NCBI GenBank assembly: GCA_012026655.1
Contig: JAAILG010000609.1
Coordinates: 1 to 64,000 of the forward strand
Length of the DNA stretch: 64,000 nucleotides
Origin: Hydrolagus affinis
Lineage: Eukaryota
Reading direction: 5' to 3'
Position 1 is the first letter of the stretch; each line of letters starts with the position of its first letter. The translations under genes and the position numbers were made by a program. The notes under the pieces were generated by a model, which saw nothing but the letters and a program-made list of their open reading frames with translations, ran no database searches and was not told where the DNA came from. This document shows positions 581-33,556 of the stretch, piece by piece.

Positions 581-668
581 ATGACCAGCAGCTGGAAGAA
601 GAGACCAGAGGGAAGCAAGAGACTGGATGTCCAGCCTAGAGTGTTGGGGACACAGAAGAAAACACACG
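581..668 (+). CDS. ARTN: Putative first coding exon of the artemin-like gene (MTSSWKKRPEGSKRLDVQPRVLGTQKKTH + G, phase 1)
   Basis: ATG at 581 has A at -3 (caacATGA). It is followed by 29 open codons plus 1 nt, then a consensus donor G|GTAAGT at 669. Phase 1 joins in frame to the exon at 30845 (G+AC=GAC), which has no in-frame ATG of its own. The link across 30 kb is inferred, not shown. Confidence 0.6.
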
Positions 669-1953
669 GTAAGTAAGTCTTTCCCATTTACAATCAGAGA
701 AAAACAATCAGTTTTATCAATGAAAGAGAATGTGTGTGTGTTTATATATCAATAGATATGTGTGTGTGTGTGTTGAAAAGAAAAACAAGAGCAGAGATTT
801 AGTGAAAGACACACACACGGTGGACACTAGACAGACAGTTTTACTGTGAAACTCTGTGTGTGTGTGTGTGGGTATATGATTGTGTGTGTATGTGTGTGTA
901 CTTGTTTCACTCCTTCTCTTTCTGGCCGTGAATCTTAATACTCTGTGTTCTGCTGCCTGTGTTAGTTATTGTATTATATTGCATTGAAATGTGTTATATT
1001 TTATATTATGTTATATTATTATACTATACACCCAGGGATTGTGATCTTGGCATCTGATGGTCTGTAGTGGGCGACAGAGTGACATGGTCAGGATTAGAAA
1101 GGTGTTCTGCAGGTTTGCAAAGCACCTTAATAGTTTGCATATTATTATCAGTATTATCATTCCTATTTGGGGCTGTCAATAGTTTGGGTGTCAAACTCCA
1201 GGGGTATCATCAACAAGACAGAGGGTGGGTGGGTTGAGGCTCGACAAGTTGGATTTCAATTAAAAAAGGGGAAGGAGGGAGGGAGAGAGAGAGAGAGAGA
1301 GATATACCACAAACACTTTTTAATCCAAGAGATTATAACAATGTGGTTTGTTTTTTAAAAAAGCATTATTTATTATATATATTATATAATAATAATAAAA
1401 AAGAGAGATGTGTGTGGGTGTATCTATTGTTCCAACCCAAACTCCCAACTAGGTTAAGTGGAGTTTTAATGTTATGCACAAGTGGGTGGGCAACTCAGAA
1501 GTATAGAGTTACCTCTTTGTTAGCTGAGATAGCAGTACTGTAAACAGGGGGGGAGAAAGGGTGGAACCAGCCCACTGTGTCAGGTGTTTTTTTCTTGTCC
1601 ATCTGTCAAGCCAAGGGTCGAATTGCTGCTAATGTGCCACTGGTATCAATCTGGCATTAGATACTTAACTCAGCCCTCTGCAAGCTTTCTCTGGAGCTAT
1701 TTGGATCCAATCCTGGCAGTTTAAAAAAATATATATATATTTATCACTATATATCAAATGCAAGTAAATAAAAATATGGAATAGATAAGCAATTCAAATT
1801 TACCAGCCGAATGGTATCAATGGGGGATGTTGTTTCCATGCTGTTGAGTTATGGAGATCTGTCTCTCTCTCTCTTCTCTTCTTAAGTGTGCAAAAGGCCA
1901 CTTAGTCCTCAGTGGGTGGCCCGGGTGTAACTAACATGAACGGTATAACTAAC

Positions 1954-2318
1954 GTGGAGCTCTTGTGGCTCAGTGGCTAGAGCGCTTGCCTTACAAGTGG
2001 GTGAGACCTGTGTTCGAATCCAGGCAGATCAGGGCGAAACCTTGGGCAAGTTGCCTTACTCTACACATACAACACACGCGCGCCTAATAATAATAATAAT
2101 TCGTCCCCCTCAAAAAAACCACATTAATAAAAAAAAGTTGGTCATTTCGATCCACGACTGTTTGTGGGGGACGCTGCTGTGTGCAATTGGCTGCCGCATT
2201 TCGCCCACAAACATACAGTCAATTCATTTTGCAGTATATACTGTGAAGCGCTTTGAGACGTCTAGAAAATGTGAAAAGCATGATATCAAATGCAAGGATT
2301 ATTACTATTATTATAATT
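1954..2318 (+). mobile_element. Full-length tRNA-derived SINE with Deu-type core and (ATT)n tail
   Basis: A box TGGCTCAGTGG, B box GTTCGAATCC, core GCTGTGTGCAATTGGCTGCCGC, tail GTGAAGCGCTTTGAGACGTC..AAATGCAAGGATTATTA. Many copies in this window. Confidence 0.9.
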
Positions 2319-2421
2319 ACAGTGGAACAGGAATGGTCACAACTAGAATGAGAGGAGTGAAATAGGAACACACACACACACATAGCTGGGTGCTGTACAT
2401 GAGCAAGGTCTGTTTATAAAA

Positions 2422-2739
2422 GTAATAATCCTTGCATTTGACGTAGCGCTTTGCATTTTACATCTTCTCGACGTCTCAAAGCGCTTCACACAATACGCCG
2501 TAAAGTGAACTGACTGTATTTCTTGTGGGCGAAACATGGTAGCCAATTGCGCACCACAGAGTCTCAGTCCCACAACAATCGTGGATTGAAACAACCAATT
2601 TTTTTGTTTTGAGGGATTATTATTAATCGTGTGGAGTCAGGAAACTTGCCCAAGATTTCGCCCTGACCCGCCGGGAGTCGAACTCGGGTCTCTCGTTTGC
2701 AAGGCGAGTACTGTAACCACTGATCTACAGGACTCCACG
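2422..2739 (-). mobile_element. Full-length SINE, same family, inverted relative to 1954-2318
   Basis: Reverse complement of tail, core and tRNA head. Confidence 0.88.
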
Positions 2740-4913
2740 CCTCCTCACATGTGAAAGTGTGCTTAGTGTACATCATGTTCTGATTCAAGTTATTTTGTGG
2801 GACATGGCTGGACTCAAATAGTCTGTCAGGTTCGCCTACAAAATACGCAATCACTAAATTACATTTACAGTAAATCCTGCAGAGCACTTTGAGACATCCT
2901 CCTGAGGTGCTATACCAAATGCAAGGAATATTATCATTATTAAATATTGTAAATTAGATGTTGATTCCTGACGTATCAGGAGTAAAAGGTAGGTTTGTGC
3001 AAATACGCTAGAGAAATGTTGCATAAGGAAGTGACTTTGTATGAGAGTCAATGCTGCTGATGTTCCAAAGTGAAATGGTGCAATCCAGACAGCACGACAT
3101 TTTCAAACGACCAGAACTAGGAACCTGAGAGGCTGAACCCATCATCTGTGCCAATAGATTTGTGTAACAGGTAGTGCTGCTGTTGCTAATTATTTAATTT
3201 CATTTAAAAAAGATTTCTAACATATTAGAGGACACAGTTAAAGTGGCTGGTATCTTTGTGTCTGTGTGTATATATAATCCCGTTCTCTCTTAATTCTGTT
3301 ATCAGTTCAGCTAATATTACTCAAAGCTAAAATGCCGGATGGATTCTAAAGTTGATGGTGTATAAGTTGGGACCTTTCCTATCAATCTGTTGTTGTTGTA
3401 TTAGCATATACTATAGACATCATTGTACAAATTTGTTGTGTTGAACAATTATCACCTCCTCCGCACACCCACCACCCCAAACGCTGAGGACTTTTCAGTT
3501 TGTGTTCGTGCATGAATTGCAAATATTCTTTAAGCATATTTTGATGTAAAAGACTCTGTGGTATAATTTAACAATTGTGCTACAATTTTGACAACCAACA
3601 AAACGTTAAAACGCATGTTATATCAATTAAATACTTTATATGAATTGTCAATGTCCAGATTCATGTGTAGGATCTGTTCAAACTATCTTCACCTCATTCT
3701 GGCTTGCCACCAAGTTCATCGCCCTTTACATACTAATGAATGAGAAATCTTCCAGTCTTGAATACTTCTATTCCACAAATGGAGCGCTTAAGGCGGAATA
3801 TAATTCCTGGAAGCAACAGGCCAAATAAGGGGAACAAAATTAATATCTCAAATATGAGTACAAATGGTTCGTGTTCTACTTGTGAACTGAGCTGGAAGTG
3901 GTTAATTTGTCGATTGTATTTAGATTGAGGAATTAAACAATTAGAAGATCACAATCATTTAACCTAATCCCATCCTTTGTTTTGTTGGGGGTGAGATTTA
4001 CCTTGTTTTGAAAGGCATTAAGAGCAACCTGTTTGCAGGGTTCTTCCAATTCCCCTGGAACCAGTGACTTTCCAGTCGAGAAGTGTCCAGTTGCCTTTTG
4101 GTGCCTTTATTAAATCAAATGAGATAGGCAACTCAATGTGTGGAGTATGATGCGAACATGTTCCATGCTATTCTATAACATACTGGGCTCTTGCATTACG
4201 CAATCATTAATGGCAGCGTGAAACACCAAACAATGATCAACGATAAACACATTCTCCCAGAACCAACCATCTCTTTCCTTGAAATATATTATCTATTCCA
4301 TTTCTATTGCGTGGAGCAGAGTTTTCCCCAGTGTTTTAGCTAATAATCCCCAAATAAAATTGGTCATTCACTTCATGGTGGTTGGTGGGACATTGCTGTG
4401 AGCAAATTGGCTACGAGCTTCACTTACAAAACACACTGTCGTTACACTTTACAGTGTATTCTATGAAGCCTTTTCAAGACGTTCCCCCAATACAAAACCA
4501 AATGTAAGGATTAATGTTTATTATTCTTATTTTGCCAACATTTGAGCATTTTGGCATCTTCTTCCAAATCATCTTGTTTGAACAGGGTTGGCCAATTGTC
4601 ATGTGTTCTTCTTGTGAATTTACAGGTGCTATAAGGGAAGCAGTTCTAAGTGTCATAGCTGATACAAAAACAATTACTAACTAATTGGCAAAGATTGAAG
4701 ATTATAAGGGCTGTTTTCTCTGCCCTGTTCCTTGCAATGCTGAGCTAGATTAATGTATATAATGCTGGATTAATATAATGTATTATTAATATTAAGAGTA
4801 AGAAAGATTCTTGGGAATAATTTGGGGAAAACTAAAGTCCATGAGGTCAGGTTTGCTGAAGTAACAAAGGAAAAAGCATCCTGTTAAATATGGAAAATTC
4901 TTTTTGGACTAAG

Positions 4914-5120
4914 AATAATAATAATAATCCTTGCATTTGATATAGCGCTTTTCACATCTTCTAGACGTCTCAAAGCACTTCACAGAATATACTGTAAAGT
5001 GAATTGACTGTATATTTGTGGGCGAAACGCAGCAGCCAATTGTGCACAGCAGGTCTCACAACCAGTCGTGGGTTGAAATGACCAATTTATTGTTGTTTTT
5101 TTTGGTGAGGGATTATTATC
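4914..5120 (-). mobile_element. 5'-truncated SINE
   Basis: AATAATCCTTGCATTTGATATAGCGCTTTTCAC.. through the core; no head. Confidence 0.85.
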
Positions 5121-5498
5121 AAATCTTTATCTGTATCCACAGACGAGAATAATAGACACACACTTTCATTACAACAATAAGAAAAGCTACAGGCAGGAAA
5201 AACTATTGAAACGCCTCCGTAGTGAAAACACATATTACACATTTGCAAAGAATCTACGGTTACCAAGTTCACGGAACAGTAGCAAGCTATTAAACAAAGA
5301 CAAGCTTCGAACAACCAGATTAAAGCCTCAACCCATCAAACAGATTAATCAGTTACCGCTGAGTAACTAACCAAGGCAGAACTCAAACTCAAAGTTTTAC
5401 AAAGGTACTTCCGAGCCTTGATTTGAATGCAGTTGGTGAACCTCTTATCCTGTATGTAAACATTGGGATTTCCATGTTTAGCTGCGTCTGGATACTCT

Positions 5499-5700
5499 TA
5501 TAATAATAATAATAATAATAATCCTTGCATTTGATACAGCACTTTTCACATCTTACCGAGGTCTCAAAGCGCTTCACTGAATATACTTGTAAAGTGAATT
5601 GGCTGCATATTTGTGGGCGAAACGTGGCAGCCAATTGCGCACAGCAGTGTCCCTCACAAACAGCCCTGGATTGAAAATGCCCAATTTTTATTATTGTGCG
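5499..5700 (-). mobile_element. 5'-truncated SINE
   Basis: (AAT)n tail plus core, reverse strand. Confidence 0.85.
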
Positions 5701-6764
5701 CTTAAACACCGTGAAGAGTTTCCACATGTGTTAAGACACCAAGTTGACTCTAGCCCCCCGACCCCCCCAAAAAAAAAATTCTGTAACATGGCTGCCCTTT
5801 GCAGCTGCATCTTCAGGTGTTGGGAACTAATGTGCCTTAGCAAACACCACGAGCAACCATTTTCCCTTTGGCAGTGGGAGGACTGAAAGCTTGAGCCGTG
5901 CGTGCAGTCCCTGTGATTTTGTTTTGACGAGCTTGGCTTTACAGACCCTCTCCAGACACTGGGAAAAGTCCAGAGGAGAGTTGATATAGCTTGCAATTGT
6001 GACTTTTAAACACTTTTAAACAGTTGCTCACGCATAGTTTTGTTTGTTGTTCTGGTGCTGTAGAAACCAGTTCCACATTGTAAATGGGGTGAACTCCGTG
6101 GCAATAGGAACTCGCAATCTTAACAGAGCTGCTCCTGGAAATGGCTCTGTGATTATAAACACATCGTTAGGTATTGAGTCAGAAGATGCTGAAGAAATGG
6201 AGCTCCATCCACGCTGAAAACAGTAATGTTATAATGTTGTTTACTGAGGCATAAATCATTTGCAAGTAATTTTCTTTTTGCATATATACAAATTCATTTA
6301 TTTATACACCTTACCAATTTCAGTCGTGTTGTGGCCTGCTTTCCACATCTCTCTGCTCCCTCATTCCCCCCTCCACCCAAAAAAATAAAAGTATTCCTAC
6401 TAGAATTTGATTTGTAACATAGCCAAGTGAATATACTGTAAGTAACATTCATTCACACCGGAACAAAGGTTTGAACCTGTAACCTGCATTGGAAGGTACT
6501 CATCAATCTGCTGCTGAAGTCATGATTTCGACTCACAGAAGGTTGAAAAATGATAGGGATTTGGCTGAGTGTGATTATCGATTATTTACTGAAAGTTTCC
6601 AGTCGATGTTAAAAAAAACATTATCAACAAAGTTGATCAAATATCTAGAGGGCATTTTGCTACAAGTCAAAACCAGTTGTGTTAATCTTGTGTAGATGAC
6701 TTCTGAATTTTCTCAGTGTTTGTATTTTTTTAAACAAAAGTTGTTTTCTAACTCCTGTTCTCCT

Positions 6765-6940
6765 TGAACATTTTCAAGGCTGAGACTGATAGATTTTTTT
6801 AAAAAATAGAGGGATTAGGGGATATGGAGATAGGGCAGGTAAGTAGAGTTAGATCAGAAGATCAGCCATGATCTTATTGAATGGCGGGGCAGGCTCAAGG
6901 GGCCAAATGGCCTACTCCTGCTCCTAATTCTTATGTTCTA
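6765..6940 (+). mobile_element. CR1-type LINE 3' end
   Basis: GATCAGCCATGATCTTATTGAATGGCGGGGCAGGCTC..GGCCTACTCCTGCTCCTA.TTCTTATGTTCT; related copies at ~26480-26740 and 62867-63250. Confidence 0.75.
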
Positions 6941-7424
6941 TAAGCCCGGATCTTTCGGAAAGTGGTGCTATTTCTGCTTCTTCCAGCTGAGAAATTCTTC
7001 ATTCATAATCAAGGGCAAGGCTTTGACAAACACCCCCAAATAATTCATGGGTGGGGGGGGGGAGGGGGGGTGGGGAAAGGGGGAAGGGATAACGAGGAAA
7101 GTACTGGAGCTTAAGGGGGAAATTCGAAGGACCGAGAAGCAGAATGATTGGTTGACTGATGCAGGCCGCTATTTGATCAGTTCAGTTTCTGAGCTTTTCT
7201 TTTGCGTTCCGAAGATCTGCACTAACTTAGCAACCAAATACTGTACATAAGTTGTGAAATACAAGTTTGGAAACCTACAGCATTGTCATCGGTAGAAAAT
7301 GCCCCCACCCTGTAAATGGGGCTAATTTCAGCAACTCAAGGTATCACAGGGTTGCTTATAATTGAAGCAACAGTGTACTCATCCTATTGATCTTTCCCAT
7401 TGACTTGCTTCTTCTTCGACCTCT

Positions 7425-7662
7425 CCCCCCCACACTCTGGAACTCCATCCCACAGTCGCTTCGCCTTGCTCCCTCCCTCCCTCTCCTCCTTCTACGACCC
7501 TCCTCTTCGACTGTGCCTTCTGCGGCCCTCCCAACTTTCTCTCCCTCCGCTCCCTCCTACCCTGCCCTACTCCCTTGCTTGGGTCCCGACCTGACTGTTC
7601 AGCGCCTGGGGTGTCCTCCAGACGTGAAAGCCTCTCTCTAAATGTAATTTTGTTGTTATTGT
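7425..7662 (+). mobile_element. L2-type LINE 3' end
   Basis: Encodes PTLWNSIPQSLRLA (ORF2 C-terminal LWNSLP motif) and ends ..GACGTGAAAG..AAATGTAATTTTGTTGTT. Confidence 0.75.
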
Positions 7663-8209
7663 TAGTGTTTAATGAGTAATCAGACTGGTTTAGTCTCACT
7701 GCAGATGTTCTTCGTGTTCGGCAGAATTTTATTTAACAAAATACCCCACACGTTTGGCAGCTTTCGGAGAGGCTGTGTGAACAGCCAATGTGTTTTTGAC
7801 TTGTTTACTGAGCACATTGCATGTTCCATGCTGAAATGAAATCTCACTGTCATTGCTATCATAACAAACATAGTTTTGACCAGTGACTGGTCTGTAGACT
7901 TTGTGTTCTGGAATGTGGGATGCAGTGGAGGATTGATAATTGATCAATGTAAATCCGTAGGGAATAATAGATATCTGTCCGCGAGTTATAATTCAGTCGA
8001 GTGGTTTTAGTTGATGATGTAAACAGCAACACCGACTCGCACTTGCATTGTGGCTTTCGGGTAGAAAGACATTTTACAGAACTTCACAGAGACAGAGTGA
8101 GTCAATGGCTTGAAGTGGGTGGGAGATATCGGAGAAGGAAGAAGTGAGGTGATCACAGGTATATTTATGGTACGAGAAATAGGCTTTTACCTTCTGGATT
8201 GACTCGCTG

Positions 8210-8440
8210 ATTGAGTCCCTCCAGTTTGACTCTGCCCATCCACAGTACTGACCACCTTGGTCCAAGTCACAAACAACATGCTCTTCATCTGCACCTGGAA
8301 GCTCCTTATCCTCCTTAAACTCTTTACTGCCTTTCCAGTGGTTGATCTCACTCTCTCTCCTCCCACGTACACACACCTCCGTGGTCCTGTATTTAACCCA
8401 TTTCTGCCCGTCCCAGAGTGGTTTTCTATCTTTTCTAAGT
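8210..8440 (+). mobile_element. Decayed L2 reverse-transcriptase fragment
   Basis: Translation LVQVTNNML..LLILLKLFTAFPVVD resembles L2 RT ALVKVTNDLL..LLILLDLSAAFDTVD. Confidence 0.65.
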
Positions 8441-11429
8441 GCACTATCGGACGGAATTGGGGTTTGAGAGAAGCTGCTTTCAGTACAGAGTTTCGTGAGG
8501 ACAATCAATGAGGCCAGAGTAAATTCAGTAACACTTTGCACAGCTATAACGAACGAGTAGAAATTGATGCATCTGCTTTTAAATGTTTCTGAGGGGTGGG
8601 GTATATTGACCAGTTTTTCCATATCCTGAGTGGGATTGACTTTGAATAGCTCTTTTCAAAGAGCCGGTCCAGACACGATGCGCCAAATGGCCTCCTTTTG
8701 TGTTGTAAAATTCAATGATTCCTCCTGATATTGTTCAGTTTGTTTTTACTTCCTCTGGTGCTTTGCTGAAGTGGCCATTATCTATGTGTCTTGACGGTGA
8801 ATACTGTACAGTATTTGCAGTCTGTTTTACTATGGCAAGTATTGCACTCAAAGCTGACACCTGATGTGCAAAGGACCTGCAGCTCTGGCAGGGATTCTGA
8901 TATCAACTCAAAGGCAACTACTGTTGCTCGGACTGAGATCAGCTAACTCAAAACAGGCTAGAGATCGGACCCGGGAAGATGTGAACAATTAATATGGATT
9001 AAATAAAATTTATTCTGAATGTTTTGCTCCACCAGTAAACTGTGATTGGTCGACGCAATGTGTATTTTGTGTATTTTGAAAAAAAGGTAATTTTCAAGAT
9101 ATTTCCAAGACTGGAATTGAAACAATAGAATTGAAGGAGGAAGGAAGGGTCACACCGAGGTGAGGTTGAACGTTGGCTCACAGGAAGAGAAGTAAATCAC
9201 CTTTATTACACATCTTGGTGGCTCATGAGTGAGCGAGGAAGGAAGTCTGGGATTAAAGTTAATGCCCGACTATTCCCACTGCCAATGGACAGAAGTAATT
9301 TAAGGGTCTTTTATGATATCCAAATTCCCAATTATTTTGAAACCTTTCTGAATTATTAGTATTCCATAAAATCTAAAATTCTATAAAATGTCATCAAATT
9401 AACAAAACAGCGTGTGCATTATATTCTTGAGTTTGAGGCTGCTGCTGGACAGTTGGATTGCCACTTTCGATATTGATTCTTAAAAGAAACACTTTCACTC
9501 TCGTGCGTGCGCGCACACACACACACACACACACAAGAGTTTTAAGATCTCGGAGAATATATTTCCGATGTTCTGCCTCTCTCCACTTTGAGGGAATGCC
9601 AACTCTTCATGAGCAATGGAATGTCAGAAAGAAAAATGTGTTTGTGTGTTTTGTTTTGCTGCCATTGGCTAGAGTCCTGCACAACTCTACCAAGGACGGA
9701 ACCTTCTCCCGTCCTACATTTGCTGAAACCCGAATTATCCTCATGTCGACCTCGTTGATCTTCAAGCCCAATCCTAACAGTCCTTAAAGATTTCAATGTA
9801 TTTCAATGTATTCGAATAATTTAATTTATCCCTTAACCGAATGCAGTGACTTATTTTGCGAGCCAGGAACGGTCAGGCTAAGCTAGAACGCCATGCTACC
9901 TCTCCCGATTAGCTGTTTATTCGCAAGGATGTCTTGACAGTGAGTGTCAACAGGCATTTTTGGTCTTGGGGAATATCACAGCAGAGCCCTTTTCTGACCA
10001 TTAGTTTATCTGCCCCACTTCATAATTGGCAGCGTAAGCAACTGATGTGCTCTGAGGCCTTCTCTGCTTCTATGTCAGTAGTTTCAAGTTGACGAGGGTC
10101 AACTCTTCTCAATGGAATGTCTATCACTGAACTCAGCTCCTTTTTGGAAAAAAAACTCATTCGTTCATGATCTCCAGCCAAGATTTTTTAAGTGAGATGC
10201 ATTCTGTATAAATCTGATTCTCCCCCCACCATCTATTTACTGGTTTATTAATCCTCAAGGACTGGTTGGTTTCCAAGAAGCAGCAAACTTAGGTGGGACA
10301 TATTTTGCGAAAGTCATTGTGTCTCTGCTTTGGATAACATATCCTTAAAAGACATTACAAAGACACTAATAAAGGCCATTAAAACTGATTATTTTTATCT
10401 TCCTCTTGCCCTCGTGCATGTGGAGTTTCCTTTTCAAATGTTTCAAACGATATCCATGTTCCCTTTACTCAGAGCCAATTTATTTCATGAGCTAACATCT
10501 TGATTATATCTTAGAAATGAAGCCCAAATGGTCAAAATGAATATTTTATGTGCAAAATCACTCTAAAATCTTCAAGAAGTAGCCGTTGCCAGCAAAATCA
10601 AGATGCGACTGCTGTACACTGTGTCCTGGAGTAATCACGTAACGAAGATCTGTGAAAGAGTCAAATTTCTAATACTTATCAACCAAACCATCTCTGCTTG
10701 TGCGTTAACCCTGTAACAAGCAAGCCAATTTCTTTTTTTAAAAGTCTTCCATTTAGCTCCAACACAAAACCCCAGTAGCTGTTAGCACCACAAACTGCTG
10801 TGTGAAAACCTGGGAGTGATTTGACGAACTTAAATAATGAAAGTCCATTTATATTAGAAGAAAGTAAGTGAAACCATGCTCAGGATTCGGATGACATTTC
10901 TAAATCAATTAAACCCTTGTCATTTAAAGTTGATACTGAACCCTTCATATATATATTATATATATATATATTTTGTATATATATTTTATATATATATTCA
11001 TACCCTTGGGGTATGTTCTTAAACATTGCTGGCTATTACTTTATATAGTATAAACATTGCGTTTACCATTGCTATAAAATTAGATTTTATTGGAATTATG
11101 TTAATGCGGTTCTAGCTCCTTGTACTTGCCTCGCCGTTGATAGTGCAATCTCTCCCTCCCACCCATTGTAGAATTTCTCAGCTCAAGCTTCATGTGGTCA
11201 TTAGTGTGGGAGAAAATCTTGAAGACATAAGTGAAGGAAGTGGAGGTAAGCACTCAAAAGCTTCCTTTATGAGCTTTAAAAGATAATGCCTTCTGCATGG
11301 AAAGTCAGATATAGATGTGACTTTGTGGTATTTATAGGTTTGAGCAAGTCTGAGACCCGGGTTTGAATTGAACTCACATTGATGGGACATATAACCTAAA
11401 TGTTAATATAGTTAATGGAACAGAGGAAT

Positions 11430-11760
11430 CTTACAGTACAGATAGGGGATCTTTATAGGCGCATGTATGAAGACCAGAGCATTTAAAAATTAAATGGAAT
11501 TTCTAGGATTATATAAAGAGCCATTGAATATAAGAGCAAGTATCTAATGTTACATTTGTACAAGTTGTTGGTTAAACTGCAATTGGGTTGCTATATCCAA
11601 ATTTGGGCACCTTGTGACAGAAAAGACATCATTGTGTGACAGCACAGATTCGCAAGGAATGAGAGTTCTAACTATATGGAGCGTTGGGTATACTTTCGTT
11701 AGAGCGAGGAATTGTTAGAATGTAAGATGCCTGACCACAAATGTCTATATCTATCTACAA
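11430..11760 (+). mobile_element. Decayed CR1 ORF2 C-terminal fragment
   Basis: Reads RAIEYKSKYLMLHLYKLLVKLQLGCYIQIWAP, resembling CR1 IEYKSKEVMLQLYKxLVRPHLEYCVQFWSP. Confidence 0.7.
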
Positions 11761-20262: not shown

Positions 20263-21010
20263 TTCATTTGAACCCAGGTTCCTGTTCCATGGCTAGTGTA
20301 CAGCTTTCGGACACAAAACGTAGTAGCTATGTACATTCTTGATATCCATGGCAGACCAGCATAATGGAAATTTATCAAAAGAAATTTCAGACTTGTACAT
20401 TAGAAATTCCAGATGACACTGGATCTTTCAAAATGTTCATTCAGAAAGCGTATTCTAAAGATGGCAATCGAAGCAATCAAACAAGAGAGCTAGTGTCTCC
20501 GAGGACAAATTAATTGATGTAGTATTCTGACAGGCATTGAAATAAGCCAACAGCTAATTTCCATGTTCTAACTTGGGATTGTTAATACATTGTTAATGCT
20601 ATCTGGAGTGCATTTTTCAGGCCAAAAGATAGGATAGATATGAAGCATGGTTGAAATGATCTCATTAAATCACATTTTGTGGTGTTTATTGGGATTGAGT
20701 AATGTATTCCCATCTTTCTGGTACAGTGTTCTCTTCAGAATATCACAATGCATTCAAGTAGGGCTCCCAACAATAGAGAAATATCTTAGTAAGTGGATGG
20801 TTTATGTGGTAACCAGTGTCATAGTATATAATGTGTATTAGTCATATAGCCAGAGGGCAAAGCCAGCACAAAGAATATGTCAAAGGTATCAACGGAACAG
20901 GCCGTTGGTTTTCATGCAAATGTACCCATCTGATCCTAGTCAGATCGAGGTGATATATTTATTCCGAATTAAGTTATCCCGAAAGTGAATGAAGTACATT
21001 TTCATTGTGG

Positions 21011-21305
21011 TGGAATCCTGTAGCTCAGTGCAAGCGAGAGACCCGGGTTCGACTCCCGGCAGGGCGAAACTTTAGGCAAGTTTCCTTACTTCACGTGCCT
21101 AATAATAATCCCTCAAAAAAAATGATAATAATTTGGTCAATCAATCCACAACTGTTTGTGGGACACTGCTGTGCACAATTGGCTGCCGCGTTTTGCCCAC
21201 AAATATACAGTCATTTCACTTTACAGTATATTCTGTGAAGCGCTTTGAGACGTCTAGAAGACATGAAAAACGCTATATCAAATGCAAGGATTATTATTGT
21301 TATTA
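21011..21305 (+). mobile_element. Near full-length SINE with an internal deletion in the head
   Basis: Head, core and (ATT)n tail. Confidence 0.88.
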
Positions 21306-22349
21306 ACATAGAGCTTTTCTTTAGGGTGGAGAGATAAAAGGTTGGCGAAACATAATGAATATTACTTTTATTTTATAAGTTTTTTTGTATTTCTTAATTT
21401 TGTGGAAGCTGGAAAGTAAATTTCCATAAGGCGTCCCTCTGTACCTCAAATGTTATAAAGTCGAGAAGGCATATAATAATGAATAATGATAGTAATAATA
21501 AATAATGTTTTCAGTTGATAATAGCGACTTTCATATCATCGAGACAATGTTGTAAAACTATTTTGAAATTTTTCATTGAGACCGCTATCAAAGTATTAAT
21601 GGAAACAGTCATGCAGGGTATACTTTTGGAGTCCAAATAGATGTCATTCAATAATTTACTTAAAACAAAAAAAAACACACTAAAATGTCATGTTGGCCAT
21701 ACTTTGAAATACAGCAGCGGTAATTTAAAGTGGAAACCATTGGACGACTGAGGACATTGTGTTTGTATCAAGAATTCTTTTGGAAATATATTGCTTTGAT
21801 CAGGAATTCTGTACAATGTGGATTAATTCTGCCTAAAGCCAATGATCTTGCAGATAAATCGATCATTCACTACATGTGGACCTTGCTGGCTCAGACAGCT
21901 GCCAAGGTTGCTCTACAAAAATGATCGCTACACTTCGCAGTAAATACCTATGAAGTGATAAGGCACTATAAATTAAAGTTCCTTTCTAAAATAGATATTG
22001 CACACTGTACATCTGAAAGTTTAAGTATGTAGAGTGTCACTTAGCTTCATTACATATAAAGAAGTCGAGCAACCCCCTCCCCCTTCCCCCCCCCCACGCA
22101 CACACACACTCAAACATTCACACGTAGACAACTGAGGTATCTTATTACCTAAATCCATCAAAAGGCCAACTTTAGTGATCAGATACAAGCTCACGACAGG
22201 CAACTCTCTGTTAAATTGCTCCAACTAAATATAGATGATATAAGTGCTTCAAAATCTCCAGTGGTTATCATATAAATATTTTGTCTTTAATGGTAACCCT
22301 ATAGGCATTAAGGCTTTGGGGAATGGAGAGGGGGTAGTTAATGGTAAAT

Positions 22350-22472
22350 AAATGGCTGCTGCGTTTTGCCCACAAATATACAGTCAATTCACTTTACAGT
22401 ATATTCTGTGAAGCGATTCGAGACGTCTGGAAGATGTGAAAGCGCTATATCAGATGCAAGGATTATTATTAT
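22350..22472 (+). mobile_element. SINE 3' fragment inside a CR1-like remnant
   Basis: Core end plus tail; the right flank GAACAGGCTCGATGGGCTGAATGG is CR1 3' UTR-like. Confidence 0.8.
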
Positions 22473-24599
22473 CAAAAACTAGTAGAACAGGCTCGATGGG
22501 CTGAATGGGCTTCTGTTCCACTTCTATTTTTCTCATGAAACGTGGGTCTCCTTAAAAATATATTGTTACTTCAATTTCAGGACCTTTTCACAATCTAGAC
22601 AAAGCTGCGGAATCTACCGTTATAGTTTCACCCCCAAGTCCCCTCCTCCCTCCGCCTCACTGAAAGCTAACACAAGAGATGCCACCGAAACTCCAGATCG
22701 AATTGTCCTCTGTTAAAGAGTTTGTTCAATTACCTGTCCTTGTGGCACCCAGTGTTCTTTTAAACGATTAAATGTTACTGACTTGATGAGAAATGGTCAA
22801 CTGGCTTGGCTTGTACCAGGTCAAATGTACGTTATAACCTGAACTAACCCGCCCGCTTCCAAAAAAAAAATTGTCTGGGTCGAAGAGAAGAAGAACCAAC
22901 TCTATTTCAACAAGTTAATAATAAAATATTGTCTGCCCGAGGGGAAATCTCATGTTCCCTGCCACCAATATTTATTCCCTTGATCTCCTGAGAGTTTCTG
23001 TTCTTAGCTTCAAGTGACTCTTAGATAGTGCCCTGGGTATGAAAATAAGGCCAAGCATAAAAAGAATTCTCCCTTGAGAGCCGTTGATATGTGGAGCAGA
23101 TTCTCGCAGTGAAAGCAGGTGATGGTTTGTTCAGCAGCCCCTTCAAAATGGAGCTGAGTAAATATTTGATTAGATATAGAAATAAACCCGCTGAGGTTAT
23201 GTGCATTAAATTTATTTGTATCAAATCTCGCTGTGTTTCTTCCATCTAAACAATCTTATAGGCTCTCCAAGACTCTGTCCTGTAGGAAGGGCAATAACTA
23301 AACAGTATTTACTGTTTATCAGAACTTATTTGATGGCTAATGTTTTCCTAAAAAGATTCAGAAAACGTTTCTTCTCACAAAGAATTTAGAACGCACTGCA
23401 TCCAAAGGCCATAGATGCAGGTATCAATTGGGAAGTTTCAAAGGGAAATATGTCGGGATCTATGTCGTTTTGCCCGCAAAATATAGTCAACTTACTTTGC
23501 AGCATATTCTGTAAAGGGCTTTGAGACGTCTCGAAGACGTGATAAGGCGCTATATCAAATGTAAGGATTATTATGTTTATACGTGGGAAGTGAGAGTAAC
23601 AAAATTGTACACAACAAAATTACATTTGTACAGCGCCTTTCACATCGGATGAATGTCCCAAGGCGCCAGACAGTCAGTGTTAAGGTACACATCTGTATAA
23701 GGTCTCCTCGGAATCATTTTTCTCAAGACTGAATACGTTTGATTTCTTTCAACGTACTCAGAGGGAGAATCTTATCAACGTCTCCTAAAAATCTAAATAC
23801 ATAGCTGTATAATTTTCTCCATTAGGCTGGTTACCAGTGTAAATAATTACACATTTGTTTCTATCTCTTGCTTAGTTCTATTGCTTGGTTCTGTGCTTCT
23901 CAGGTGGGCATCCGCTATATCCTGAAAACATTTATAAGAATTTTCCCCACAACCGTTGGGAGAATAATTGCTGTATAATTCATTGTCTCTCATCTGGCTG
24001 CTTTACAGTGCTTTCATTTCTGTCGGAAACTCGAGTTCTGCATTGGATTTGTTTTGGTAAAAATGGATGTATAACTGAGGAGTTTCCAGATTGTTCAATC
24101 TGTGACTTCCTATCCAATGGGAATTATACAACATGACCCCCAAGATTCTTGCAGGAACTACTAAAACACTCAATAGAACCTCTAGTATTTTATTGCAATT
24201 TGGTTATATAAATACTAATGAAGAGATGTAGGTATACATTAGGTTAAAGGATAAGGTAAGGAATGGGGGGGAGGGCAGAGAGTTAAATAAGTAAACAAAA
24301 CAGAGAAATATAATACAGTACATCAAAATCACAAGAAAAGAAAGGAGGAAATAAACAGTGGGGACAGAAACATGAAAATAGCCATTTTTAGTATGCAAAC
24401 GCTAAACCTTCTGTCTCTATGTACGTGAGAGGTGATATAGGAAACTAGTTTCTACACTTTTTCGGCATGTTGTCCTTGCTGTCCTTGATGGACATATTGG
24501 AAACACAGGACAAAATATTAACACAAAATGGACACAGTACCAGGAAAAGTATTTGTATGGAAACACTGCGTTTCTAAACCCCGCCTCTAGATTATTCTA

Positions 24600-24900
24600 G
24601 TCATCTTTTAGTCCTCAGGTATAACCTTATATTGCTGGAGTTCCTGCAGACATTAACTGGAGCCTTACCTACTTCCTCAATGATTTCCTTGAGGTTTTCA
24701 AGGCATACACCATCTGGCCCAGGTGCCCTGTAGACATTTAAGGCTTTGAGTTGCCTCGTAACATATGTTTTACTGACCCCTACATGTGTTATAGATTCCC
24801 AAGCAAGTTTCAGTGGATCAGTGGAATCATTTGTGAAGACTGTTGTGAAGAATTAATTTAACACATCTGTCAATTCCTGATCCCCCATGATATTTCTACC
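24600..24900 (-). mobile_element. Decayed CR1 ORF2 fragment upstream of the RT core
   Basis: Reverse strand reads LNVYRAPGPDGVCLENLKEIIEEVG, resembling LINE KSPGPDGIHPRVLKE. Confidence 0.65.
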
Positions 24901-26384
24901 TAACTTATCCCATAAACGATGATCTGGTATTTAACAGTGAACCTACTTTGTACACAGTTGATACATTTATTTTGATGCTTTCAACAGTCATTTTAGTTGG
25001 ACTGGAATTATGTTGACTAACTTTCAGTTCTCATTATTTTGACTCCTGGTAACTTTGAAGGTGATTTTTAGCCATTAGATTGTTCTCAAACTCTTCATTC
25101 ATCCCCTGTTTTGGTCATTTCTTTGTTTCAAAATCCAGGGGAGCAAACACTAATGAATCTTTTGATCTAATTTTGGGTGAGATTAAAGTTTGGGTGGAAT
25201 TCTTCTCTTGACTGACCTGTCATTGTAAGCTTGGTGGTGAGATTGTTAGCAAGCGCTCTGAGACGCCGTCCAGCACGGAGGACGCTATATAAATTTAAAT
25301 TGTTGTTGTTGAAGTTGAGATGAATGCGAGTCACTATTATTACAATTCAAGCTAAATTTGAAGCAAATATATCACATTTTTTTTAAAAAAAACCTTACCT
25401 CAATTTTATCTAACTTTATTTTGACCCACTTTGATACATCTTACTCCCTTCCCTACGTGAGTTGTCCATGGCACACTTCGCAGGAATACAAAAGGCAATC
25501 CGAATATACGATAAGGTCATTAATTTGGATTAACACACGCGAGTTGAAGATGAATAAACCTCAAGTGAAATTAGAGATTAGAAAGAAATTTTTTTCCCCC
25601 CAGTGATTAATTGCTAGTCTATGTAGAATAGACTTCATTAAAAGCAGGTGTAGTTCAGCTAATATATTTTGTCAAAGTAATGTGAATAAATGTCTGGTTG
25701 AGAAAGAGATTGCGTTTTGGAATGGGCAGACGAAGACAATCAAACACAGTGTGACTAAAAGCTGGGAGATGCTACTCTATTATAATAGTTTTTGAATCTT
25801 AATTTCTTTAAGATTTAGTAGACATTGTAAAATGGTATCATGATTTTTTTGGTCACTCTGTACTTCGTGGAACAAAGGTACTAGATAAACCATTGTCTTA
25901 TTTATATTCTTGTCCTCATTGACCTTGTCAGGAATGGATATGCAACAGGTGTCAAAACTGATTCATTGATATACAGTACTGTACAGCCACTGCAAAGGGC
26001 TATGAAAAATCCCCTTTATTAATTGTGCTGCCTCAAACCTTGTATAAAATAACCAATCATTCTTAATCACAAACTTAGGTAATTTTATCCAAATAAAACT
26101 CTGACCATTGTTTTTGCTTAAAGTATTCTCATCAGTTATTTTAGTGTCGGATTGTTGGACCTCTATAAGGGTTATCAAACACTAAATTGAACCATTTCTC
26201 CTGTGAAATGTAAAGTGGCCCAGAATTGTGCAAAGTTCTTAAATTCCGTTTGAATTTGGAAGCCGGTACATTTTACAAGTTGCAGAAAAAACTTCCAAAT
26301 TAAGTCTGAATTTAGGCATCTTGCACAATTTCGTGCAATTTTAAATTTAACAACAAAATGTTCTTACAAGCCTGGCAGTATCGA

Positions 26385-26740
26385 AAACAAGGGGCGTCAT
26401 CTTAAAATGAAGAGCTAGGCCATTTAATAATAATAATAATCCTTGCATTTGATATAGCACTTTTCACATCTTATCGACGTCTCATTTAGGAGTGAAATAA
26501 TGTTTTCCACACCAAGGGTAATGGAAATCTGGAACTCTCTCCCTCCAAAAAAACTGTGGACGCTGGATCTGTAAAACAAATTTCAAGACTAAAGTGAATA
26601 GATATTTGTTAGGTAAGTGTATCAAGGGATATGGGGAAAGAGCGACAATTTGGAGTTGAGGTACAGATCAGCCATGATCTTGTAGATTGGCAGAACAGGC
26701 TCGAAGGGCTGAATGGCCAATTCCTGTTCCTATGGTCCTA
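26385..26740 (+). mobile_element. CR1 3' end carrying a ~60-bp SINE tail insertion (26427-26482, -)
   Basis: AGGGTAATGGAAATCTGGAACTCTCTCCC (ORF2 end) plus 3' UTR; CATTTA is repeated either side of the insert. Confidence 0.75.
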
Positions 26741-28254
26741 GGCTAAGACGAGGTAAAATTTCAGCCCTCTGGTCTCTAAAGCAACAACCTTAGAGCTGTT
26801 TGTGGGAACCAGTAACATCTCCCACAAGAATGAATGGAGATGAACTTGTGCATGAGAAAATATTCTCTTTGAACAAACTCTTGTTTAGTTTACTCTGACA
26901 ATACTGTCAATTAAGTATTTTTTTTTTAAAAACTGCCCATATCGTTCCCGCTATCTGCTTTATAATAACCAGTAATTCCGTAGTTCCGACATTTTCCCAC
27001 CACATTCTGCAGAGAATGTATGTATATCTGCCTATTGAGAAAGCTTGCAGAAACATGTAAGGTTATGTCTGGTTGTCAATAGGTTAAGAGTTCAGTGAAT
27101 CCATTTAATAAAACCAATGACACCAGTAAAGTGGTTATTTTTATTAAATGGAATCTTGGCAAATCCACATATGGACTCTCTCCCACCTAACTACAGTATG
27201 TGAATATAATTTTCATGTGATGAGTGACTGCATAGGCAGAATGATTGCCTACATCTTTAGCTTTGTAAAACACATCACTGTCGCAAGAAGCGCCTGCAAT
27301 TTAGTTGGATGTCAAAGGAGTGCTGACGCACAGTGAGAGAATACTGACTGACTCTGCAAATCCAGTTGTTTCACTAAAACACAGCAGAAAGTTAAACAAG
27401 ACAATTACCAGATTCCAGTCCTTCTCTGCTAATGGCACTTCAGAACCATTGCTGAGATGTACAAAGATTGACTTTGTCCTCAACTCTCTCTGTGGGACAT
27501 GGGTCAACCCTAAATCGGGTTTTCTTCTATTATTATTAATAATAATAATACTAATCCTTGCATTTGATTTGCAGTCTTATCGGGGCTTCGAGACGTCTCA
27601 AAGCGCTTCACGGGTTGTACTGTAAAGTGAATTGAGTGTACATTTTGTGGGTGAAATTTTACGATATGATTATTCAGAAATTGATAATGTTTGAAATGTG
27701 ACATTTCGTCAGTGAAGTGTTATTAAGCTTTAAAACCAAGGGATGGCCTAGGGGCCAGATTGAGCCGTGTGGCTCCTGCTTTGCTGAACGCCATGGTGGA
27801 GCACCACCTGCTGGAGTACAGGAACATTTATCTCCCGCAGAAGATTTCTCATTTTTAATAATATATACTGTATATATATATATATATATATAAAAACTTT
27901 ACCCTGATCTCGTCAATATTTTTCTTATTTCACGGAGTTGACAGAATTGACCTCCCTCAGTTGCTTCGGACTGTTTTTTCCTTTGAAAATTCCTTTCGAA
28001 AAAAATTGTTTAAAACCACGATTATTTCTGAATTCAAATTTCATTAAAAAATCACCTAGTTAGCTCACGTAATAGCTCTGTCTCCAGGGGAATCTAGTGC
28101 AGCATTAAACTCAACACGGCTAACCTCTTCCAATTCTTTTATCAGATTCGCATTGAAGAAGAGTATAAAGAAAGTCCAATTACAGATATTAATCCCATAG
28201 GCTTTCATATAATTTTAATGGTTGTCATGACATCGGTGGACGGGCTTTCAGCCC

Positions 28255-28455
28255 CTCTGCCCCCGCACTCTGGAACTCCATCCCACAGACCCTTCGCCCC
28301 GCTTCCTCCCTTGCCACCGTCTCTAGACCCTCCTCTTCAATCGTGCCTTCTGCCGCCCTCCCAACTCTCTCCCTGCCCTCCCCACTTACCCTGCCCCTCG
28401 CCCTTGCTCGGGTCTCAACCTGACTGTTCAGTGCCTTGAGACATCCTCCTGATGT
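28255..28455 (+). mobile_element. L2 3' end
   Basis: Same family as 7425-7662. Confidence 0.75.
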
Positions 28456-28612
28456 GAAAAAAAAAGGATATTTCATGGTGAGGTTACTTGACCATTTTAC
28501 AATCCACACAATATATTTTTCAATTGAAATGAACGCTTGTGTTTTCAGCAACTTTCAGTTTGGGGTAGAGTGTGAACCTGAACGGGGTGGGAAATTGGGA
28601 GGGGGTGCATTA

Positions 28613-28895
28613 CAACAGCAACAACAACAAAGTTACATTTCAGAGCCTTTCACATCGAGAGGATGTCCCAAGGTGCTGAACAGTCAGTGGTCGGGAACCG
28701 AGTAGGGCAGGAGGGTGGTTGGTGGACGGGTGGGTGGCAGGGTTGGGATGAAGGAGGGCAGAAAGGTAGGGGGGCAGCTGAAGGCACGGTCGAGAAGGAG
28801 GGTCTTCAGACAGGCCTTGTAGGAGGCAACAGAGGCAGCGAGGCGAATGGATTGTGGGAGGGAGTTCCAAAGAGTGGGAGCAGAGAGACTGATAA
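28613..28895 (-). mobile_element. L2 3' end, inverted
   Basis: ORF 28684..28929 reads SAPTLWNSLPQSIRLAASVASYKACLKTLLLDRAF; (CAA)n tail. Confidence 0.85.
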
Positions 28896-30753
28896 CCCCG
28901 CCACTGATGGTTATCAACATTAGGGCCATGGTCTAATAGTAATCACGGACATTAATCCTGAACTGGAAGGCCGAGTTTGAGTGTTTCCACCCATCCCATC
29001 GCTAAAGCCCTATTGGGTAGGGCAGTAGCTGTACAATGTCCAGTTGTTAAGTTTTCGAGCCAATTTGAGGTTGTAATTTGCATTTTAATTGTTTAGGTAA
29101 TGTGTGGTGTACACTCACTATAACATGATATATACACAGAATATACAATGTGTTATACACAGAATGTAACATTATAGATATATATTATATATACATATAG
29201 ACCATATAATGAGGAACCACAACACACAATCTAAACAAGACACCGTTTTCGTAGCTCAAAAATAAAAGTCCAACCAAGATTATCTGTCAAATGGAAAGAA
29301 TCTAAATCCCAATTGATAATCCTATATAAACCAAGACAAATGGGAGTTTAGGAAAAGAGGAACCAAAGTGAACAAAAATTCAGGATGTTAATACCGAGCG
29401 AAATGTGGAAAACTCCTCCATAAAGTTGCTATTTATGTTGTCAAAGAGTCAGTGAGCACCAGTTGTAAGCAGAGCAGGTCAGTCAGATCATGATTGTCTA
29501 TAGAAAAAAGTGGGCATTAACTGAGAGCATGTAGCATGCGAGAAAGAATGTGAGTGGGGAGCATTTATTTACAGCAGTGATTTATGACACATCAACGATG
29601 AACGTGAATGAATACAGTCAATGAGCATCCATTGAGGTTGTTAAATATTCAGAGTATTTGTAATATTTACAGTAGTTTTGGTTTAAATCCCTTTTTTCTT
29701 TAGGTGACGTGCTTGGTTCTGTCACTAGGTGTTCACGGTGATACCTAGCCAATTATTGAAACATGGGAGTGTGTTCAGGGTGGGAATTGTGGTTGGGTGA
29801 AGTGCGGTCAGTGGGTGTGGAGGAATGGGAGGTGTGAGACAGCAGCACGGCTAAATCCAACCCTTTCATCAACCGAGGTCCATACATCGAACTGTTTTCA
29901 AGCAACTCATGTTGAGATAATGGTTTCATTTTCCTCTCTGGTGAACCAGCGTCACCAAGGCTAATCGCTGTCTGCGGTCTTCGATGAAGTTGCCTAGTTT
30001 AGCGCAGACTTGGGATCAAACCTGGGGCCTGTCTGACTCAGAGTAGAAACCATCTGGTACTTTTACGCTCAGATCCATTTTGGGAGCCGTGAATGATCTT
30101 ATTTTCTACTTTTATCAACTCCAGATCGACACGTCCTCAGGCCAAAACATTGAATTCTAGTAAACAAGCCAAACTATTTCACATTCCTCTCGACAACTTT
30201 TGCCGGACCATTTTAATTATTGATTGATTTTAATACGGTCAAAACTAACACCGGTCCCCATGAATTTACACTGGGCGCGAAATTGTGAAATGTGGGGCAC
30301 GCGGAGACAGCAACACAAAGAGGAACATAGCACTGCTGTTCAGTTCCCCAAACTGTTTGACTGCACTAAGGAATAACATGTTGCTTCTAGCGAGTACCCA
30401 CTAAGCATTGTTTATAGAGTTGAATTATTTATACATTGCTTGCTGTTGTAAGCATAGTGGGAAATTTTAGTGGATCAATAATGTAAGGTTTCCATGAATT
30501 ATTACGGCTCGATGAAAAAACAAGTTCCGACTCTACATGGACCCTTTGCCTGAACCTGTTTGAATCATATGTGTGTGTGCGTTTGGAATTTAATAACCTT
30601 TGCCTTGTTTAGATCCGATGCAAAATCTTGTTTTAGTTACTTGTCACCATGTGACCTAACGCCTCATCCACCTCAATTTGCTCTTCATAAAGCAATAAAA
30701 GCCAAATCTCCTCTTTTTCACTCAATGCATATACATCATTATTTATTGTTCAT

Positions 30754-30754
<1 letters not shown>

Positions 30755-30786
<32 letters not shown>
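30755..30786. repeat. (CA)n microsatellite ~60 nt upstream of the exon 2 acceptor
   Basis: Seen directly in the sequence. Confidence 0.9.
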
Positions 30787-30788
<2 letters not shown>

Positions 30789-30844
30789 TCTCCTTCATTT
30801 TGCATTAACTCTTCGTTGTATTAATTTTTAATTTTGTTTTTCAG

Positions 30845-30939
30845 ACAGGTGTTTGAACAGGCCAGTGAGTGGAGGTGAACATAATTTAGATTCACGAGGT
30901 GTGGCTTATTCACCCTTGCAACCTCTCAGGAGATGGAAG
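30845..30939 (+). CDS. ARTN: Artemin-like coding exon 2 ((D)RCLNRPVSGGEHNLDSRGVAYSPLQPLRRWK)
   Basis: Strong polypyrimidine acceptor (ttttgtttttcag|), donor AAG|GTGAGA at 30940, and a stop-free frame. The phase 0 end joins the hydrophobic exon at 31482. Confidence 0.7.
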
Positions 30940-31481
30940 GTGAGAGAACCGATCTGTCGATAATTTGCGATAGTGTTTTGATAACCACCGATAAGGTCCC
31001 CCTTCACCCTTCATCTTTTCTCTCGCCTCCCCCTCTCAGACATCGGTAATCCACTACCTCTCCCACTTGGGGAGGCTGGTGGAATCTGTCAACTTTATGA
31101 TCCTTCAGCCTCAGGCACATTTGTCACAAGCCAGCCTTGTGCCCTGACTACTGTGTAATGAGAAATTGGTTACCTATTAGCTTCATACAGACTGTAAATC
31201 CCTTCTGACAAATGTGTCTAATGCAGCCAGTATGTCAACAAGATAATACAGCCCAGATCCACAGTAAAATTCCAAAGGATTCTGTTTGTTGTTGATGATT
31301 TGCTTTGATGGCAAAGTCGGTTGTGTTTCTTTGATGCTGTTCCAAATCTCCTTGAACTTGGCCTTTAGGAATAAGCCTCTCAAATTAAAGCTGTGTCCAT
31401 GCTTTGAGAGCTAGCACGGGGAGAATGCTTTACCTGATGTTCTCTTTGAAACTATGTTTTTTTATGGCACTTGTCTTCAAG

Positions 31482-31710
31482 GCTACCTTTTGGACCCTGG
31501 CCATCTTTCTGTCCCTGCTTGTCAGCTCAATTGCTTCATCACCAGTAGGGAACTGGTCTCCAGGAAATAATCCTCTATCCCGAGAGACACTCACCCGGGA
31601 CAGACAGATTCCCCCGAGTCAGAATTCCACGGAGATTCAAGGAAACCCGGAGGCAGGGTCGGTCGGGAAGAGTGAATTGCCTACACAGTCTGCCCGGCAT
31701 GCTGCCGATT
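31482..31710 (+). CDS. ARTN: Artemin-like coding exon 3: hydrophobic signal segment ATFWTLAIFLSLLVSSIASSP plus pro-region
   Basis: Acceptor ttgtcttcaag|, donor GATT|GTGAGT (phase 1). The hydrophobic stretch resembles the mammalian ARTN segment PALWPTLAALALLSSVA (recalled, not aligned). Lies within ORF 31404..31727. Confidence 0.85.
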
Positions 31711-33550: not shown

Positions 33551-33556
33551 AATAAA
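33551..33556 (+). promoter_or_regulatory. Candidate proximal polyadenylation signal for the artemin-like gene (second AATAAA at 33859-33864)
   Basis: AATAAA about 280 nt after the stop codon; usage unknown. Confidence 0.3.

Follow-up and report, generated by a model that had tools for sequence, protein, structure and literature searches.

Mammalian artemin (ARTN) and the chimaera gene described here share the cystine knot, RxxR processing, a homologous signal segment and a polar n-region. However, the mammal-type records P0157 and P0161 start in the equivalent of exon 2 with an n-region of 20 residues, whereas the chimaera gene has no methionine in that exon and therefore needs an exon 1. EDA, BAFF and TWEAK are furin-shed type II ligands of the TNF family with full-length transmembrane helices. 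The chimaera protein would share with them a basic cytosolic tail, one hydrophobic segment and a luminal RxxR motif before the signalling domain, but its core has 11 residues, and a site of the signal-peptidase type comes after it. In the NGF family, which is unrelated, the long precursor extends upstream of the signal. NGF, also a neurotrophic factor, has a long and a short precursor, proNGF-A and proNGF-B, arising via alternative splicing or promoters (excerpt of PMC7188814); in the four-exon chimaera message, in contrast, no AUG other than the long start is available. Long signals of the NtraC kind (shrew-1, the interleukin-15 long signal and MMTV Rem) comprise at least 40 residues and combine a polar, basic N-domain with an ER-targeting domain at the C-terminal end, as does the predicted signal of the chimaera protein, and their N-domain controls the export rate or has a second role (PMC2447879). 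The resemblance is one of sequence layout; artemin is not mentioned in the main text of that article.

The window, i.e. the whole stretch of 64,000 nucleotides from Hydrolagus affinis that was analysed, contains a gene that is identified from its sequence as artemin, as the original prediction had proposed. Its product matches Pfam PF00019 in exon 4 (E 2.8e-15), its top PDB matches are artemin, GDNF and neurturin, with artemin as the best, and in a tree built on 139 columns it is sister to the elephant shark artemin with a support of 93/89. The seven knot cysteines (Cys 199, 226, 230, 259, 260, 288 and 290) have the spacing of the GDNF-family ligands, and the pre-pro layout is present, with an RxxR convertase site ahead of the mature domain. 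Separate persephin, neurturin and GDNF genes are found in the same genome: locus L002 falls within the persephin clade (100/99), L003 groups with the neurturins (98/70) and L004 with GDNF (100/99). Because the artemins form no single supported clade on the 139-column tree, the artemin call additionally draws on the signal and pro segments that are shared. An ESM Atlas look-up with a sturgeon protein returned only the family, and a Pfam PRY match on exon 1 (E 0.098, below the cut-off) was dismissed as chance. Among the shark records, several that bear the name artemin are persephin.

The four exons of the model (Table 1), when joined, encode 292 amino acids with no in-frame methionine between residue 1 and residue 213. 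Exon 2 had been described as stop-free, in frame with the signal exon and devoid of an in-frame ATG, and this was confirmed, its sole ATG (30933) being out of frame. Sequence comparison identifies it as the orthologue of the exon that holds the start methionine in amniote models; it is 50% identical to its shark and ray counterparts, matches P0123 in BLASTP with an E value of 6e-5, and was the only match when the genome was searched with the shark leader. Use of an alternative acceptor at 30849 or skipping of exon 2 leads to an early stop, and both were rejected. No strong frame-preserving internal exon was found in intron 1, and there is no room for a further coding exon, since the leader has 61 residues in the window against 63 in sharks and rays. 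Exon boundaries of the homologues, all of them automated models, were deduced from proteins and not from DNA.

Table 1. Features of the artemin gene model in the window and of its predicted product
Feature	Position	Strand	Description
Likely 5' UTR of exon 1	244–580	+	RNA reads at about 244–400
Exon 1, coding part	581–668	+	29 codons + 1 nt; ends in His codon + G; GTAAGT donor
Intron 1	669–30844	+	30,176 nt; ~17% window-internal repeats
Exon 2, coding	30845–30939	+	95 nt; acceptor after pyrimidine tract; GTGAG donor; ends RRWK
Intron 2, 3' end	31425–31481	+	Stop-free in the frame of exon 3; ATGs at 31425, 31437 and 31464
Exon 3	31482–31710	+	Signal segment and start of prodomain; AAG acceptor
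Signal segment	31482–31535	+	Residues 62–79; predicted cleavage after Ala79
Exon 4	32803–33269	+	RSER, RPRR, lysine-rich stretch, seven-cysteine cystine knot
RSER	32856–32867	+	Residues 156–159
RPRR	32877–32888	+	Residues 163–166
Cystine knot	32985–33266	+	Seven cysteines, GDNF-family
Likely 3' UTR	33270–34500	+	Two poly(A)-signal hexamers (33551, 33859)

The first coding exon likely lies about 30 kb upstream of exon 2 and would add to the front of the signal a leader of 61 mostly basic amino acids. For this exon the original prediction had named a favourable ATG context, a perfect donor and the fitting phase, and A at position −3, GTAAGT and phase 1 were all recovered. These features are not enough to pick it out, since a scan of positions 1–30800 with a generic donor matrix for ATG-bearing phase-1 donors yielded 21 with a score of at least 6 and seven with a score of at least 8, the donor at 668 being the top of the seven by a margin of only 0.02. 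Comparison with the leaders of relatives lends further support. The exon, single-copy in the genome, ranked first among 144 candidates on the three-lineage mean, a score reached by none of 454 control peptides, and first or second of 144 against each of four lineage sets; shuffle p-values ranged from 0.007 to 0.24, and part of the score is supplied by the terminal His. Its peptide is basic (eight K/R versus two D/E), and its frame and donor are intact across 585–668 in a relative. On the other side of the balance, the four differences from a close relative in exons 1 and 2 are all amino-acid-changing. Four RNA reads at about 244–400 (run X3) have the same orientation as the reads of ARTN exon 3, exon 4 and 3' UTR in that run, and the three short upstream ORFs (ATG at 232, 273 and 402) all end before 581. 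Exon 3 is covered by about one read, and the likely 3' UTR shows low depth in runs X3 and X4. No read was found over the coding part of exon 1, over exon 2 or over any junction in 27–30% of three runs, which does not count against splicing because the runs are shallow. The remote exon is backed by its single copy, its rank and the 5' UTR reads; no read was seen to span 668^30845.

Exon 2 might instead have another partner, the contig starting at window base 1 so that upstream DNA is unseen, or translation might begin at one of four in-frame TTG/GTG codons in exon 2. Such an arrangement would fit the unobserved junction, the six further donors with scores of at least 8 and the low identity of the exon 1 peptide to that of sharks and rays (18%); BLASTP against a shark protein gave no match for this peptide, and two local HMMs of exon-1 peptides, run over 2948 six-frame pieces, left it outside the top 12 with nothing significant. 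We nevertheless regard it as improbable, given the first rank of 581–668 and the absence of an equally good control, a peptide length (29 residues) that fits the 33 of the shark and ray models, a His-ending junction in common with bony-vertebrate models, and 5' UTR reads that share run and orientation with other ARTN reads. Furthermore, the genome-wide search with the shark leader, which has limited sensitivity, revealed no better exon 1, and three of the six competing donors lie in repeats (18744 and two that share the ATG at 28663).

Sharks and rays have the long leader as well. It starts 10 of their 13 ARTN records, nine of them with exactly 63 residues and one with a 14-residue extension, so that the expected conservation of the leader could be confirmed in these groups. 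Among eight records its exon-1 part is 61% identical between shark and ray, whereas the prodomain reaches 46% and the knot 60%, a degree of identity which indicates that the leader is under constraint in sharks and rays. The models of Hemiscyllium (XP_060685578.1), Chiloscyllium (XP_043556061.1) and Hemitrygon (XP_072918937.1) have, like the window, a basic leader of some 60 residues that begins at an ATG, with DRC at the start of exon 2, RRWK or RKWQ before a near-identical signal segment, and no earlier in-frame methionine. These records are automated predictions, often unnamed or called GDNF-like and without comment on the leader, of which no description was found in the literature searched. 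In-frame upstream extensions are also present in gar, frog, turtle, lizard and bird models, those of bird, turtle, lizard and frog having n-regions longer than the 20 residues of P0157 and P0161, and a His just before the start of exon 2 recurs in gar, frog, turtle, squamate, bird and teleost models. A survey of leader length, in which 60 of 80 matched records had at least 35 residues, was not used as a count; fish, frogs and mammals escaped its pattern, and most of the records came from birds and turtles. The 56-residue sturgeon leader was likewise not taken as evidence for exon 1, as its front part resembles a read-through intron end. The original premise that the signal peptide normally sits close to the N-terminus does not hold for ARTN, in which even the two mammal-type records carry the 20-residue polar n-region. 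The long leader is likely ancestral for jawed vertebrates, the amniotes having acquired an additional start within exon 2.

Near its 3' end, intron 2 has an in-frame ATG in common with catshark and ray models, which, to judge from the alignment, may be the start of a short isoform with an ordinary 24-residue signal. It is quite unlikely that most secreted artemin derives from such an isoform, started at ATG 31464 through intron retention or an internal promoter, and that the long-leader form is minor or regulatory. The intron end does match the start of the catshark model P0259 (8 of 19 residues, with Met at −19 and −6), Met at −6 recurs in the Mobula model P0121, the exon 3 acceptor is the weaker AAG, and in humans three pre-pro isoforms of ARTN yield a single mature protein (excerpt of PMC5730419). 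However, both models may be fallbacks of the predictor to the nearest ATG, because long-leader models also exist for that catshark species and for a close ray (P0257 and P0248), and peptides rich in F, L, V and M arise from T-rich intron ends by composition alone. The ATG has T at −3, and positions 31046–31429 are without RNA depth in the shallow runs.

The four-exon message would encode a 292-residue precursor whose leader stays cytosolic and whose internal signal is cut slowly or incompletely after Ala79, a reading to which we assign a probability of about 0.5. We prefer a long, slowly cleaved signal of about 79 residues to a stable type II anchor because the hydrophobic core, from Trp to the last hydrophobic residue, spans just 11 residues, and a conserved site of the signal-peptidase type comes after it; the small-x-small motif S[ST]IA/SS, recognised by eye, is present in 13 of 13 cartilaginous-fish sequences. 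The 79 residues up to the predicted cleavage site consist of a polar N-domain followed by an h/c domain at the C-terminal end, and 296 vertebrate signals of at least 40 residues are on record (PMC2447879). The best 19-residue hydropathy of the segment (1.78) is below that of four and above that of two of six GPCR helices encoded in the same window (1.53–2.70).

The original prediction had seen in this segment a possible uncleaved type II signal anchor that would tether pro-artemin to the membrane until a furin-like convertase frees the mature dimer. The basic flank on which it was based is there, with RRWK at residues 58–61 at the presumed membrane face and 14 K/R versus 5 D/E in the leader, and the n-region of 61–63 residues is long. 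In yeast, according to an excerpt of PMC8277137, cleavage drops once the n-region exceeds about 16 residues and the uncleaved forms are membrane-anchored, and corin is protected from cleavage by basic residues on the cytosolic side (excerpt of PMC11756421). The segment is also unusually conserved (81% identical between the window and sharks and rays), has in sharks 20 uncharged residues between basic and acidic flanks, and is one helix in the AlphaFold model (residues 60–84, pLDDT about 66), which, with a mean of 52, is uninformative on topology; the leader of a shark orthologue is modelled as disordered (pLDDT below 50, residues 1–58). Still, an anchor seems unlikely in view of the 11-residue core and of the polar c-region of small residues kept in all 13 sequences, and the core is directly followed by Pro, Gly or charged residues in the homologues of fish, frog and reptile. 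Mammalian ARTN, with a homologous segment, is a secreted factor, which also counts against an anchor. Signal anchors have considerably longer h-regions (excerpt of PMC2120157), and in one type II protein at least 20 hydrophobic residues were uncleaved and at least 16 partly cleaved (excerpt of PMC2115136). The yeast study, in the part cited, also reports that less hydrophobic signals remain cleavable at greater N-lengths (PMC8277137).

In the favoured route of slow cleavage, splicing of 668^30845 would join exon 1 to exon 2, residues 1–61 would stay in the cytosol while SRP recognises the internal core in residues 62–79, and RRWK would set the N-in/C-out orientation. Signal peptidase would then cut after Ala79, slowly or incompletely, and free a signal peptide of about 79 residues. 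Release at RSER or RPRR had been proposed, and these are the only RxxR sites of the product; RSER aligns with invariant Arg residues (R164 and R167 in alignment A4 of 20 ARTN sequences), while RPRR is not the conserved one. A convertase would presumably cut at RSER, followed by secretion of an ordinary GFRα3/RET ligand, GDNF-family ligands signalling via a GFRα co-receptor and RET (PMC5730419, in excerpt). The leader may tune the export rate or act on its own after release, as other long signal peptides do.

The chimaera artemin gene is hereby completed for annotation, the elephant shark record being partial. The mammal-based picture of a short-leader artemin is corrected, as models ranging from sharks to birds show both a first exon that is coding and a long leader of basic character. 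In cartilaginous fishes the four-exon message has no later AUG by which the leader could be bypassed. A more speculative and rather improbable scenario is that the ancestral gene made both a tethered, furin-released long form that escapes signal peptidase and a soluble form from intron 2, both kept by cartilaginous fishes, while mammals have the short-leader soluble form only; if true, the long form would be the first tethered GDNF-family ligand. The gene offers a simple natural test of the distance between signal and N-terminus that is still compatible with cleavage, and, if the segment is left uncleaved, artemin would be a GDNF-family ligand acting by contact or by timed shedding.

Exon 4 of the gene matches PF00019, carries the seven cysteines of the GDNF-family ligands (GFLs) and finds artemin as its best structure matches. 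The 1.11 Gb genome contains four GFL genes. A 38-row tree built from the mature region joins the window to elephant shark artemin as its sister (support 93/89) and points to a chimaera as the likely animal; locus L002 falls within the persephin clade (100/99), L004 groups with GDNF and L003 with neurturin. In this tree of 139 columns the artemins form no single supported clade. Four records from sharks and rays that carry the name artemin or artemin-like (P0060, P0062, P0063 and P0064) cluster with L002 and the persephins (100/99) and are therefore persephins. The true artemins of sharks often bear the label GDNF-like or uncharacterized.

The four exons join into 292 residues, with methionine solely at positions 1, 213, 216, 249 and 271, and are separated by introns of 30,176, 542 and 1,092 nt. 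Base 1 of the window is also base 1 of the contig.

Coordinates of the artemin (ARTN) exons and of other features of the window
Feature	Position	Strand	Description
Exon 1, coding part	581–668	+	ATG at 581, A at −3, 29 open codons plus 1 base, GTAAGT donor at 669
SINE-like repeat	1953–2739; 32126–32513; about 30 other places		tRNA-like head; very abundant
Tandem acceptor	30845–30849		CAG ACAG; use of the second AG would give a frameshift and a stop two codons into exon 2
Exon 2	30845–30939	+	open in the frame of exon 31482–31710; sole ATG out of frame
End of intron 2	31425–31481		last 57 nt open in frame; ATGs at 31425, 31437 and 31464
Exon 3	31482–31710	+	shares the frame of exon 2; ends at 31710
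Exon 4	32803–33269	+	last exon of the 292-residue join
Processing site-to-knot stretch	32877–32984		exceeds its shark counterpart in length and lysine content; extra RPRR site
EP4-like prostaglandin E2 receptor GPCR	51703–56975	−	two coding exons; PF00001, E 1.8e-37; tail to tail with ARTN

The original prediction had chosen 581–668 as first coding exon for its Kozak ATG, GTAAGT donor and phase. All three are present but not distinguishing: a scan of 1–30800 with a generic donor matrix returned seven ATG-bearing phase-1 donors scoring at least 8 and 21 scoring at least 6, with 581–668 on top by just 0.02, so exon 1 does not stand out by its phase and splice signals alone. Three of the six rival candidate donors lie in repeats, and the exon is single-copy in the genome. 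Among 144 ATG-to-GT phase-1 peptides of 20–45 residues from 1–30844, that of 581–668 ranked second against shark/ray and against squamate exon-1 peptides and first against those of turtles and of teleosts; averaged over the shark/ray, squamate and turtle scores it came first, with a mean attained by none of 454 control peptides (two attained the shark/ray score). Exon-1 identity with sharks and rays is 18%, shuffling gives p-values of 0.007–0.24 across six lineages, and the exon was missed by BLASTP and by two local HMMs. The 61 residues preceding the signal segment are compatible in length with the 63 of the shark and ray leaders, and no strong frame-preserving exon was found within intron 1. 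Four reads of X3, an RNA run of a relative, lie at about 244–400 and share the orientation of the reads that this run places on exons 3 and 4 and the 3′ UTR; in the 27–30% of each RNA run that was read, none fell on 581–668, exon 2 or any junction. In a close relative's DNA, where coverage begins after the ATG, 585–668 and the donor are intact with no indel; all four differences in exons 1 and 2 change an amino acid, compared with none of three in the knot. The gene model with exon 581–668 is probably right (probability roughly 0.8).

The leader frame is conserved in sharks and rays. Among 13 retrieved shark and ray ARTN records, all automated models with exon boundaries deduced from aligned proteins rather than DNA, ten start with the long leader (nine of exactly 63 residues, one carrying 14 additional N-terminal residues); two others start in the equivalent of intron 2 and one in the prodomain. 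Comparing sharks with rays over eight of the ten, after leaving out two near-duplicates of P0123, gives 61% identity in the exon-1 portion of the leader and 60% in its exon-2 portion; the signal segment reaches 78%, the prodomain 46% and the knot 60%. The leader is therefore constrained like coding sequence. In-frame extensions upstream of exon 2 also occur in automated gar, frog, turtle, squamate, bird and teleost models, in most cases with a histidine immediately ahead of the exon-2 start, a feature that the window shares. Amniote models carry a methionine of their own two codons into exon 2; at that place the window encodes cysteine. The exon-1 extension is far longer, roughly 90–120 residues, in frog artemin models P0114, P0116, P0137, P0270, P0272, P0273, P0279 and P0280, and its start motif is common to distant families.

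Signal peptidase sites have small residues at −3 and −1. Behind RRWK the window has an 11-residue core (Trp to last hydrophobic residue), followed by S[ST]IA/SS in 13 of 13 cartilaginous-fish sequences (the window and 12 records; P0260, without this part, was excluded), a motif that fits this rule and thus predicts a cut after Ala79. The uncleaved type II signal anchor originally proposed is retained as a minority hypothesis. Signal anchors have considerably longer h-regions than signal peptides (PMC2120157). One type II protein stayed uncleaved with at least 20 hydrophobic residues and was partly cleaved with at least 16 (PMC2115136). In favour of an anchor, cytosolic basic residues block cleavage of corin (PMC11756421), and in yeast cleavage drops once the n-region exceeds about 16 residues, with uncleaved forms remaining membrane-anchored, an effect of length that is smaller for weakly hydrophobic signals (PMC8277137). 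Long cleavable signals are common enough: 296 vertebrate signals of at least 40 residues are on record, some controlling export rate (PMC2447879). The best 19-residue hydropathy, 1.78, lies within the range of six helices of the neighbouring GPCR (1.53–2.70) yet above mammal-type ARTN (1.15–1.31), and therefore does not decide between the two; the AlphaFold model of the basking shark protein, with a disordered leader and a single helix at 60–84, is compatible with both. Most likely, an internal signal would insert N-in/C-out and be cleaved slowly or partially, after which a convertase would cut at RSER, whose arginines are invariant in the family, and the normal ligand would be secreted.

A short isoform starting inside the 3′ end of intron 2 is possible, and a start at 31464 would yield an ordinary 24-residue signal. 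Catshark model P0259 opens with a 19-residue piece identical at eight positions to the intron end, and Mobula model P0121 begins at the −6 Met. Both starts may be fallbacks of the gene predictor, and intron 2 had no RNA coverage in the 27–30% of each run that was read. Multiple precursor forms are known for human ARTN (three pre-pro isoforms, one mature protein; PMC5730419) and NGF (long and short; PMC7188814).

The SINE-like repeat is heavily represented among RNA reads. The lysine-rich stretch before the knot may bind heparan sulfate. The neighbouring GPCR is probably of EP4 type, and in human GDNF lies in the neighbourhood of PTGER4; the two pairs would suggest a common paralogon. Automated records of sharks, rays, frogs, reptiles and birds already include the long leader, and no description of it was found in the accessible artemin literature. 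Long-leader artemin is a real and likely ancestral variant of a known gene.
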